Positions 124 to 1,884 of a stretch of 40,000 nucleotides of DNA are shown one piece after another (the stretch's first letter is position 1; the number at the start of each line of letters is the position of its first letter). The stretch is from Delftia acidovorans (GTDB lineage Bacteria; Pseudomonadota; Gammaproteobacteria; Burkholderiales; Burkholderiaceae_C): assembly GCF_037146395.1 (NCBI RefSeq), contig NZ_JBBCVP010000004.1, one strand, 5' to 3'. The position numbers and the translations under genes were made by a program. Under the pieces are notes generated by a model. That model searched no databases, had not been told where the DNA came from, and was given only the letters and a program-made list of their open reading frames with translations.

Positions 124-429
124 ATGAAGCCCGCCTGCTGCAGTGTGTGCGGCATGTACGCCATCGATGAGCCAGCGGATCGGAAGGGCGACTGGCTTAC
201 GTTTGCGGACCACGAACCCGCGACAGCCGAAATGCTCTCACATCCCCAAGGGCTTGAGTACTTTTGTGCCCTGCATCTGCCCGAAGCGCAGGCGCTCAGG
301 CATCTGAATGCTGAGAAAGCCATCGCACAATTGCGCGCCAGGATGCCTGCACAAGGTGCCTCTTGTGCTTTACCTGCTGCTGCCCCCCAAGGCTGGTTGC
401 AGCGGCTCACCAAGCGGTTCAGGCCATGA
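124..429 (+). CDS. small Cys/His-containing protein, paralog A (family not recognised)
   Basis: 101-aa ORF with an ATG start. It aligns without gaps to the ORF at 1651-1884 (39/72 identities by hand; motifs CSVC, WLxFADH, MLSHPQGLxYFCAxHLP). Conserved residues use different synonymous codons in the two copies. Confidence 0.6.
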   Translation: MKPACCSVCGMYAIDEPADRKGDWLTFADHEPATAEMLSHPQGLEYFCALHLPEAQALRHLNAEKAIAQLRARMPAQGASCALPAAAPQGWLQRLTKRFRP

Positions 430-522
430 CTGTGTGCCGGCCGTTGCCCTCCCTCTTTTCTGGTCAACGTCTCACAACGGTGGACGAGGCTGTTCATTCA
501 TTTCATTAACCTGGAGATATTT

Positions 523-1524
523 ATGACGATCAAAATTGGTATCAACGGCTTCGGCCGCATCGGCCGCATGGTGTTCCGCGCTGCCGTGCAGAACTTCAGC
601 GACATCGAAGTCGTGGGCATCAACGACCTGCTCGAGCCCGACTACCTGGCCTACATGCTCAAGTACGACAGCGTGCACGGCCGCTTCAAGGGCGAGGTCT
701 CGGTGGAGGGCTCCAACCTGATCGTCAACGGCAAGACCATCCGCCTGACGCAGGAGCGCGACCCCGCCAACCTGAAGTGGAACGAAGTCGGCGCCGACAT
801 CGTGATCGAGGCCACCGGCCTGTTCCTGACCGACGAGACCGCACGCAAGCACCTGGCTGCCGGCGCCAAGAAGGTCATCATGTCCGCGCCTTCCAAGGAC
901 AGCACCCCGATGTTCGTCTTCGGCGTGAACTGCAAGACCTACGCCGGCCAGGACGTGATCTCCAACGCCTCGTGCACCACCAACTGCCTGGCTCCCGTGG
1001 CCAAGGTGCTCAACGACAAGTGGGGCATCAAGCGCGGCCTGATGACCACCGTGCACGCTGCCACCGCCACGCAAAAGACCGTGGACGGCCCCAGCAACAA
1101 GGACTGGCGCGGCGGCCGCGGCATCCTGGAGAACATCATTCCCTCCAGCACGGGCGCTGCCAAGGCCGTGGGCGTGGTGATTCCCGAGCTCAACAAGAAG
1201 CTGACCGGCATGTCCTTCCGCGTGCCCACCTCCGACGTGTCGGTGGTGGACCTGACGGTGGAGCTCAACAGCGAAGCCAGCTACGAAGAGATCTGTGCCG
1301 AAATGAAGGCCCAGTCGCAAGGCGCGCTCAAGGGCGTGCTCGGCTACACCGAAGACAAGGTCGTGGCCACGGACTTCCGCGGCGAGTCCTGCACCTCGGT
1401 GTTCGATGCCGAAGCCGGCATCGCCCTGGACAAGACCTTCGTGAAGGTCGTGTCCTGGTACGACAACGAGTGGGGCTACTCGAACAAGTGCCTGGAAATG
1501 GTGCGCGTGGTCGCCGCCAAGTAA
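523..1524 (+). CDS. gapA: type I glyceraldehyde-3-phosphate dehydrogenase
   Basis: 333 aa. N-terminal INGFGRIGR Rossmann motif, catalytic [13 protein letters not shown]-terminal [14 protein letters not shown] lies upstream of the ATG. Confidence 0.97.
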
Positions 1525-1568
1525 TCCTGGCGCGAACCGCTGCGGGGCCTGTCGAGGGCCCCGCACCC

Positions 1569-1600
1569 GGCCGGCATCGGACGCGATGCCGGCCTTTTTC
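1569..1600 (+). terminator. rho-independent terminator after gapA
   Basis: Perfect 10-bp stem GGCCGGCATC/GATGCCGGCC, 6-nt loop, then TTTTT. A second GC hairpin lies at 1542-1564. Confidence 0.75.
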
Positions 1601-1650
1601 TTGGATGCTGCGAAACTGGCGGCTTGTTCGTCACCTGTGATTCGCCAGCC

Positions 1651-1884
1651 ATGCAACCAGCCTTTTGCAGCGTCTGCAACAAGAACCTGACGCAGGAAGC
1701 CGGCCCGCTGCGCGGAGGCTGGCTGTGCTTTGCCGACCATTGCGCCGAGCAGGCCGTCATGCTGTCCCATCCGCAGGGACTGGCCTATTTCTGCGCTGTG
1801 CATCTGCCAGCAGCGAAGGCCCTCGCGCATTTGCCTCAGCAGGAAGCGATGGCACGGCTGGCGCAGGCCGCTGCGCGTTCTTGA
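1651..1884 (+). CDS. small Cys/His-containing protein, paralog B (family not recognised)
   Basis: 77 aa from ATG 1651. The track ORF starts at TTG 1624, but the alignment to paralog A begins exactly at this Met (MQPAFCSVC vs MKPACCSVC). Confidence 0.6.
   Translation: MQPAFCSVCNKNLTQEAGPLRGGWLCFADHCAEQAVMLSHPQGLAYFCAVHLPAAKALAHLPQQEAMARLAQAAARS

Follow-up and report, generated by a model that had tools for sequence, protein, structure and literature searches.

Organization of the locus

The stretch of DNA analysed here, referred to below as the window, comprises 40,000 nucleotides (nt) of contig NZ_JBBCVP010000004.1 of Delftia acidovorans (assembly GCF_037146395.1), and the present work concerns two small paralogous genes near its beginning, ORF A and ORF B (ORF, open reading frame), together with the gene that precedes the first of them. 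ORF A (positions 124-429, forward strand) codes for a putative C2-CH zinc-finger protein of 101 amino acids (aa) with a W-x-R-L-type tail at its C terminus, which is a predicted inhibitor of the product of the upstream gene. ORF B (1651-1884, forward strand) codes for a 77-aa orphan paralogue of ORF A that lacks the tail. The upstream gene, on the same strand, encodes a 288-aa protein with a predicted papain fold and is the conserved partner of ORF A; its 3' end occupies positions 1-123, and its start lies 743 nt before the window (full gene, G000:C4:145555-146421, equivalent to L008:14256-15122). Between the two ORFs lies gapA (523-1524, forward strand), a housekeeping gene outside the system that serves only as a marker of the insertion site.

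An initial annotation had described ORF A and ORF B as diverged paralogues, under purifying selection, that bracket gapA. Both frames are open at these positions on the forward strand, and an ungapped alignment of their first 72 residues gave exactly the 39 identities that had been counted by hand, whereas the best of 100,000 shuffles of ORF B reached 17. BLASTP aligned the two proteins with 36 of 61 residues identical (E = 6e-24). The conserved octapeptide MLSHPQGL was likewise found to be encoded with six synonymous third-position differences between the two genes. The TGAATG junction with the upstream gene is present as described, the Shine-Dalgarno sequence of ORF A (GGAGGAG) being located within the end of that gene, and ORF A is, as judged from this junction, translationally coupled to the 288-aa gene. 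What had been missed is that the informative neighbour is this papain-fold gene, the stop of which abuts ORF A.

Coding capacity of ORF A and ORF B

The ratio of nonsynonymous to synonymous substitution rates (dN/dS, or omega) was calculated by the Nei-Gojobori method. Between ORF A and ORF B, omega was about 0.17, with a proportion of synonymous differences (pS) of 0.71 and a synonymous rate (dS) near saturation. When the window was compared with three Delftia relatives, ORF A gave a value of 0.22. For its part, ORF B gave 0.47 against one relative, a figure that derives from 18 changes (7 synonymous and 11 nonsynonymous). The 288-aa gene showed values of 0.08 to 0.11, and the order of constraint is thus enzyme (about 0.1), ORF A and ORF B. 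Because of these omega values, both ORFs are taken to be real coding sequences, diverged from one another under purifying selection as had been proposed, the constraint on ORF B appearing to be either weaker or merely less well measured.

It is highly improbable that one or both ORFs are non-functional, whether as chance frames in GC-rich DNA or, in the case of ORF B, as a decaying remnant. ORF B has no clear Shine-Dalgarno sequence, its omega value rests on those few changes, and it has lost the tail, has a long branch in the family tree and is absent from many strains. Against this, the invariant ligands are retained in 123 homologous clusters, the protein sequence has been kept between ORF A and ORF B while synonymous divergence reached saturation, and an intact ORF B is found also in an independent strain and in a relative that is 82% identical.

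A rare family of putative zinc-finger proteins

The family had been presented as unrecognised, and this was borne out by the searches. Neither protein gave a meaningful match in Pfam, NCBIfam, PADLOC or PHROGs, and the family profile retrieved only chance C2H2 matches from the PDB sequences (E ≥ 0.012); yet an exhaustive phmmer search of 1.84 billion cluster representatives recovered 123 relatives at E ≤ 1e-3. Nearly all of these are 70 to 110 aa long and share an M-K-P-A start at the N terminus, and ORF B matched the family profile with an E value of 2e-26. In many members, ORF A included, a variable linker is followed by the short W-x-R-L-type tail at the C terminus, which is missing from ORF B and from other short members.

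Six potential metal ligands had been proposed (C6, C9, H30, H40, C48 and H51). In an alignment of 80 members, four of them, C6, C9, C48 and H51, proved to be invariant, as did F27, whereas Tyr predominates at position 30 and H40 is shared by 88% of the sequences; M1, P3, G22, P41, G43, A55 and A66 are nearly invariant. Because only C6, C9, C48 and H51 (plus F27) are invariant, the metal site is read as a four-ligand C-x2-C...C-x2-H zinc knuckle (C2-CH) rather than a six-ligand one, with zinc as the presumed metal.

The AlphaFold model of ORF B consists of two short strands followed by two helices, with a predicted local distance difference test (pLDDT) value of 77. Foldseek found no significant neighbour for it in the PDB, the best match having an E value of 0.39 and most matches being ribosomal zinc-ribbon proteins. 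In the ESM Atlas, unnamed look-alike clusters were retrieved from Actinomycetota, Myxococcota and Pseudomonadota (scores of 0.93 to 0.94), while the nearest named structures to the zinc-finger protein were HNH fingers, with template modelling (TM) scores of 0.42 to 0.48.

Two named families were considered and rejected. In favour of THAP (C2CH), the C-x2-C-x38-C-x2-H pattern falls within the spacing of that finger and the domain of the present family always begins at residue 1, but a single member of the 80 touched the THAP model (PF05485, E = 0.006), and no THAP structure was present among the 50 Foldseek matches shown for the ORF B model. As regards HNH, position 30, the equivalent of the catalytic His, is mostly Tyr, no Pfam HNH match was obtained at E ≤ 10, and the TM score was at most 0.48. 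The similarity to THAP and HNH is only a resemblance.

The distribution of the family is rare and patchy, with members in Delftia tsuruhatensis, Paracidovorax species, Acidovorax sacchari, Azonexus, Oceanobacter, Pseudomonas paralcaligenes and several metagenome-assembled genomes (MAGs). Searches of 24 other species from the genus and of 400 others from the order did not detect it. In the family tree, the clade of ORF B is sister to that of ORF A (support, 92/84) and the branch leading to ORF B is long, and because of this position ORF B is regarded as a probable diverged duplicate of an ORF A-type gene that has lost the tail. As separate observations, five members (P0009, P0010, P0051, P0116 and P0114) contain tandem domains, in two or three copies, or a fusion, the latter joining the finger to a putative rhamnosyl-transferase domain (PF11316, E = 1.6e-22) in a protein of 371 aa.

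The upstream gene encodes a predicted papain-fold enzyme

The 288-aa protein belongs to a family of about 286 to 290 aa for which 147 hits were obtained, all of them hypothetical and with no Pfam domain. Without exception, 45 homologues retain C110, H207 and D223, the surrounding sequences being G-G-P-N-C-F-W, G-G-H-A-I-Y and M-D-R-T, respectively. In the AlphaFold model the C-terminal half is confident, and roughly the first 100 residues are helical, partly hydrophobic and poorly modelled. Foldseek matched the model to papain-like folds (E = 4e-5 to 1e-2; probability, 0.97 to 1.0), among them 8brf, the bacterial Josephin-like ubiquitin clippases 9g7g and 9f5t, staphopains, phytochelatin synthase and SpvD. 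As modelled, then, the protein shows a papain-like fold with a Cys-His-Asp triad.

Assignment to a named family was pursued in several ways. Matches to Tox-PL1/Gln_amidase (PF15644) were sub-threshold and limited to 5 of the 45 homologues (best E = 0.057); the protein of the window gave no PF15644 match, and none of the 45 homologues tested attained the gathering score. The ESM Atlas offered papain-fold toxins and PF15644 clusters, which are leads and not evidence of membership, and a further lead to the pre-toxin TG domain had a score of only 0.71. No PF13529 or PF03412 match was found even at E ≤ 1. Similarly, PADLOC-DB 2.0 gave no match at E ≤ 1 for the enzyme, ORF A, ORF B or a 163-aa ORF that lies upstream of the enzyme gene.

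A side observation concerns residues 56 to 61 of the protein (L008:14421-14438), L-R-L-G-D-G, which are located about 50 residues before the catalytic Cys. The G-D-G part is invariant, and L-R is kept in at least 90% of the members. The motif recalls the ubiquitin tail L-R-L-R-G-G, and the fold search gave Josephin-like clippases of the ubiquitin C terminus; as pure speculation, it might be an autoprocessing site that releases the N-terminal domain.

Pairing of the enzyme and zinc-finger genes

In all the examined enzyme homologues that are at least about 55% identical, a zinc-finger gene is found directly 3' of the enzyme gene, either abutting it or overlapping it by 1 to 4 nt. These paired loci comprise four Delftia records (L009-12), L014, L017-21, L028, L029, L038 and L040, among which L017 and L018 are two gammaproteobacterial MAGs of 41% GC and L019-21 are three Paracidovorax species. 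The enzyme gene is split in the pair of L028, and only its last 66 codons are left in that of L029. Apparent breaks in the 288-aa gene of L009 and L010 turned out to be gene-caller artefacts, the frames being intact. The paired loci have unrelated contexts, with GC contents ranging from 41% to 71%; since the surrounding genes differ between loci, the enzyme and zinc-finger genes travel together. In the genome studied there is a single copy of the enzyme gene and there are two zinc-finger genes, with no second enzyme gene for ORF B.

Other arrangements were also observed. In Acidovorax sacchari (L016), a zinc-finger gene nearly identical to the Paracidovorax oryzae copy lies 20 nt after the same upstream gene, and the enzyme gene is gone. 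One partner-less member, which is tailed (L023:545-1255), begins exactly at the end of a 137-aa TIR_2 protein (E = 7.5e-12), which suggests that another kind of effector can also be a partner of the finger family. In Pseudomonas paralcaligenes (L024:2391-5216), five small ORFs of the same orientation, one of them of the SUKH-1/SMI1 immunity type, form a run that ends with a tail-less zinc-finger gene and is followed by a 692-aa trypsin-like/DUF5648 protein; this arrangement looks like a poly-immunity array. In two further loci (L036:4864-5133 and L037:1379-1648), an enzyme homologue of 40% identity is followed, in place of the C2-CH finger, by an 89-aa protein whose two transmembrane helices lie between one CxxC pair at its N-terminal end and another at its C-terminal end, and which gave a weak match to a LITAF-like zinc ribbon.

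In Delftia, the pair forms part of a cassette. Its G+C content at third codon positions (GC3) is 0.48 to 0.66, compared with 0.87 to 0.93 for tkt, gapA and csaA. The first gene of the cassette is an ORF of 153 to 163 aa just upstream of the window (L008:13650-14141; G000:C4:144949-145440), with an N-terminal transmembrane helix, several Cys residues and no family match, its GC content being 49% in a region of about 69%. This ORF was found only in the Delftia loci; in L014, just the enzyme and zinc-finger genes lie between tkt and gapA.

Predicted complex

Co-folding of the enzyme with ORF A yielded an interaction prediction score from aligned errors (ipSAE) of 0.76 in each of three runs, and 0.00 in three controls. 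With ORF B the value was 0.74 (control, 0.00), and the interface was the same. Scores at that mark were attained by 58 of 80 solved complexes and by 2 of 110 mismatched pairs. With both partners, the enzyme side of the interface comprises residues 106-111, 150-154, 194-208, 224 and 246-250, that is, the neighbourhood of the Cys, His and Asp residues (C110, H207), with its centre at 106-111, 203-208 and 224, and the zinc-finger side comprises residues 1-5, 12-15, 21-24, 32-41, 44 and 46. The models support a predicted binding of ORF A and ORF B over the active site of the enzyme.

This interface bears on whether the zinc-finger proteins might instead be nucleic-acid-binding regulators, such as autorepressors of their operon, rather than direct inhibitors of the enzyme. 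Small C2-CH fingers typically bind nucleic acid, and the ESM Atlas feature labels of the family are nucleic-acid-associated zinc motifs, in addition to its HNH-type neighbours; some members carry two or three tandem domains, as multi-finger DNA binders do, and many stand alone without the enzyme. However, no DNA-binding family was matched, a regulator would have no need of the direct downstream, coupled position seen in every close homologue, and the co-fold places the finger confidently and reproducibly on the catalytic triad, with null controls. We consider a regulatory function in place of inhibition unlikely. The two roles are not exclusive, as illustrated by the antitoxin MqsA, which binds its toxin and also DNA.

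Strain polymorphism and the position of gapA

The gene gapA has a GC3 of 0.93, compared with 0.64 to 0.73 for the two ORFs, and its protein is 100% identical in the Delftia relatives. It is followed by an intrinsic terminator (1569-1600, forward strand) with an 11-bp stem containing 9 GC pairs; the hairpin spans 1569-1594 and the T-run extends to about 1600, so that the terminator reported before ORF B is present. Its sequence is conserved with and without ORF B, and it constitutes the left boundary of the segment that contains this gene. Downstream of ORF B, the CsaA-like gene was also recovered as described (tRNA_bind, PF01588, E = 1e-13).

ORF B lies in a 295-bp presence/absence segment (1605-1899, no strand being assigned) that, by alignment, is replaced by 16 nt in other Delftia strains. 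In runs X1 and X14, position 1604 is joined to 1900 with 16 other letters in between. No convincing direct or inverted repeats were found flanking the segment, nor did it give an Rfam match. The public runs, X1, X3, X14 and X15 among them, consist of assembled contigs, and two of these four (X1 and X3) are probably DNA.

The presence of ORF A and that of ORF B are independent among Delftia strains, all four combinations being seen. Thus, the cassette and ORF B occur together in the window, L011 and run X15; the cassette occurs alone in L009, L010 and L012; ORF B occurs alone in run X3; and runs X1 and X14 contain neither. With respect to the region between ORF A and gapA (430-522), the cassette-free strains (runs X1, X14 and X3) diverge exactly at 522, one base before the gapA start codon, and therefore in cassette-bearing strains the 5' leader and ribosome-binding site of gapA come from the low-GC sequence on the cassette side.

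A functional meaning for the bracketing of gapA was not supported. The order tkt-cassette-gapA is found only in Delftia and in one related MAG (L014), loci elsewhere have no gapA nearby, and ORF A and ORF B vary independently. A functional link to gapA was accordingly rejected; the adjacency is a positional accident of insertion, and the impression that these genes are linked to glycolysis is corrected.

Proposed role of the two proteins

We consider it probable that ORF A is the cognate neutralising partner of the upstream papain-fold enzyme, and ORF B an orphan copy of such an inhibitor. Should the enzyme be delivered to other cells, ORF A would serve as an immunity protein; should it act within the cell that makes it, ORF A would be an antitoxin. 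The enzyme and ORF A would form a translationally coupled module that moves between genomes and that reached Delftia as a low-GC cassette between tkt and gapA. The small protein would fold round one zinc ion by means of C6, C9, C48 and H51, and its N-terminal M-K-P-A segment and H-P-x-G-L loop would lie over the catalytic cleft, barring access to Cys110 and His207. The enzyme, the chemistry of which is presumed, is probably toxic. Its target probably lies in the cytoplasm, in view of the cytoplasm-type zinc site of the partner and of the partner's lack of a signal peptide. ORF B, alone in its indel and apparently under weaker constraint, would exemplify the orphan partner copies that are retained when the partner has been duplicated or the enzyme gene has been lost.

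Besides the conserved pairing, the fold and triad of the enzyme, the co-folds and the tighter constraint on the enzyme than on ORF A and ORF B, several observations that agree with the behaviour of conflict systems were counted in favour of this proposal: the atypical composition of the cassette, the sporadic distribution, the four combinations of ORF A and ORF B, the orphan of A. sacchari, and the partner-less members located near TIR_2 (L023) and SUKH-1/SMI1 (L024) genes. As to the features of effector-immunity pairs, intact catalytic residues, a conserved downstream gene, and orphan copies together with presence/absence among strains were found, and neither a trafficking domain nor a secretion linkage (PAAR, Rhs, VgrG, LXG, CdiA, MuF) was detected. 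As to those of type II toxin-antitoxin systems, the genes overlap or are coupled, no DNA-binding family was matched, and carriage by plasmids or phages was not found.

A number of results weigh on the other side. No zinc-finger gene lies near the enzyme homologues of 40 to 50% identity, which come from Phyllobacterium, Labrys and two metagenome loci, and one of these distant partner-less homologues has an Xre-type helix-turn-helix gene upstream; either the enzyme is tolerated alone or other partners substitute. Conversely, about half of the sampled zinc-finger genes have no adjacent 288-aa gene, and in an Azonexus MAG (L013/L015:505-3931) a tail-less member comes directly after an HslV-like and AAA_2 (HslU/Clp-like) pair, which is preceded by a STAS-domain protein. 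The enzyme was found to have no recognisable domain for secretion or trafficking, its N-terminal 100 residues containing no Pfam domain; its gene is not adjacent to type VI secretion system (T6SS), contact-dependent inhibition (CDI) or Rhs genes, its neighbours being housekeeping genes, and tblastn did not find it in 72,556 plasmid and 50,697 phage records. With regard to the models, the N-terminal 130 residues of the enzyme are poor (pLDDT of about 40 to 50), the calibration of the co-folds holds only roughly because our own alignments were used, and the residues of the interface are only slightly more conserved than the others (0.53 versus 0.45). The co-fold with ORF B, moreover, is not independent of that with ORF A, because close cousins of a true partner also score high.

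Some of these same results would suit a non-toxic pair in which the enzyme has the zinc-finger protein as its substrate, activating subunit or chaperone, the N terminus of the finger perhaps being processed or modified in the active site. The predicted interface puts residues 1 to 5 of the finger in the catalytic cleft, as a substrate would be placed, with M1 and P3 nearly invariant, and the distant homologues that lack the partner suggest that the enzyme may not be intrinsically lethal; the lack of any secretion signal or delivery domain points the same way. On the other hand, the N-terminal motif is kept also in members with no enzyme gene nearby, orphans that survive loss of the enzyme gene (L016) or stand without one (ORF B) are better suited to a protective role, and the sporadic, cassette-like distribution and the TIR and SUKH neighbourhoods are more typical of conflict systems. 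We regard the substrate or subunit role as rather unlikely, and return to neutralisation of the enzyme by ORF A as the preferred explanation.

A broader proposal, which we put forward tentatively and hold at somewhat less than even likelihood, extends neutralisation to the whole family, in Pseudomonadota and in the look-alikes of Actinomycetota and Myxococcota. Its members would be single-zinc C2-CH plugs that occupy, through the N terminus and the H-P-x-G-L loop, the active sites of undescribed stand-alone papain-fold toxins, and orphans such as ORF B would confer acquired immunity against the enzymes of neighbours. The plugs would then constitute a structurally new kind of immunity protein or cysteine-protease inhibitor.

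Both families are hypothetical in all the libraries searched and have no Pfam model, with at least 147 enzyme homologues and at least 123 zinc-finger clusters. They are best classed as new, unnamed families in a familiar toxin-plus-neutraliser layout. If the role proposed for ORF A and its enzyme is right, they would represent a new family of papain-fold toxins and a new zinc-finger type of protease inhibitor for bacterial conflict systems. The module is compact, with two genes for 288 and 101 aa, and can be tested easily. The Delftia locus, for its part, constitutes a natural experiment, with the cassette and the orphan together, either one alone, or neither; since these four genotypes exist, competition between near-isogenic strains would show whether the orphan is protective.

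Comparison with known systems

In MqsR-MqsA, the toxin gene comes first and is followed by a small overlapping antitoxin gene. The toxin-binding domain of MqsA has a structural zinc site formed by two Cys pairs near the N terminus, and its C-terminal domain is of the helix-turn-helix type. The gene order is therefore alike in the two systems, as would be the zinc-based partner. MqsR, however, is an RNase of roughly 100 aa and not a papain-fold protein, and ORF A and ORF B match no antitoxin family.

The staphopain-staphostatin pairs (PDB 1pxv and 1y4h) provide a closer parallel on the enzyme side, inasmuch as the small cytoplasmic inhibitor, the gene of which is co-transcribed with that of a papain-fold protease, sits in the active-site cleft and protects the producer, and staphopains are among the best Foldseek matches of the 288-aa protein (E = 6e-4 to 2e-3). 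In contrast to the 288-aa protein, staphopain is a secreted pro-enzyme with a signal peptide, and neither protein is related in sequence to its counterpart here. Staphostatins are eight-stranded beta-barrels with no metal site.

Tox-PL1/Gln_amidase (PF15644) is a papain-fold toxin of polymorphic toxin systems with a dedicated immunity family of putative peptidase inhibitors, Imm35 (PMC3482391). The 288-aa family shares with it a signature of the N-C ... H ... D type, with G-G-P-N-C in most of the close members, but the D-x-Q part of the signature is absent (here D-R-T). Whereas Tox-PL1 forms the C-terminal tip of large Rhs, WXG or MuF toxins, the 288-aa protein stands alone, and its partner is not Imm35.

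Finally, Cpe1-Cpi1 consists of an interbacterial papain-like cysteine protease toxin, which targets GyrB/ParE, and its immunity protein (PMC12136450). Cpe1, a member of a C39-like clade, occurs as a fusion with T6SS or CDI delivery domains. Its immunity protein Cpi1 is no zinc-finger protein and acts not at the active site but at a substrate exosite, which it blocks (PMC12136450). Unlike Cpe1, the 288-aa protein has neither PF13529/PF03412 nor a delivery domain, and the interface predicted here covers the triad itself. In both systems, a papain-fold enzyme with a Cys-His-Asp triad is encoded directly upstream of a small protein, which binds tightly and neutralises in Cpe1-Cpi1 and is predicted to neutralise here, and the target is, or would be, cytoplasmic; a cluster named after Cpe1 is also the nearest ESM Atlas feature match to the 288-aa protein (0.88, a lead only). 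Cpe1-Cpi1, staphopain-staphostatin and Tox-PL1/Imm35 may thus serve as working analogues, and not as relatives, of the predicted pair formed by the papain-fold enzyme and ORF A.

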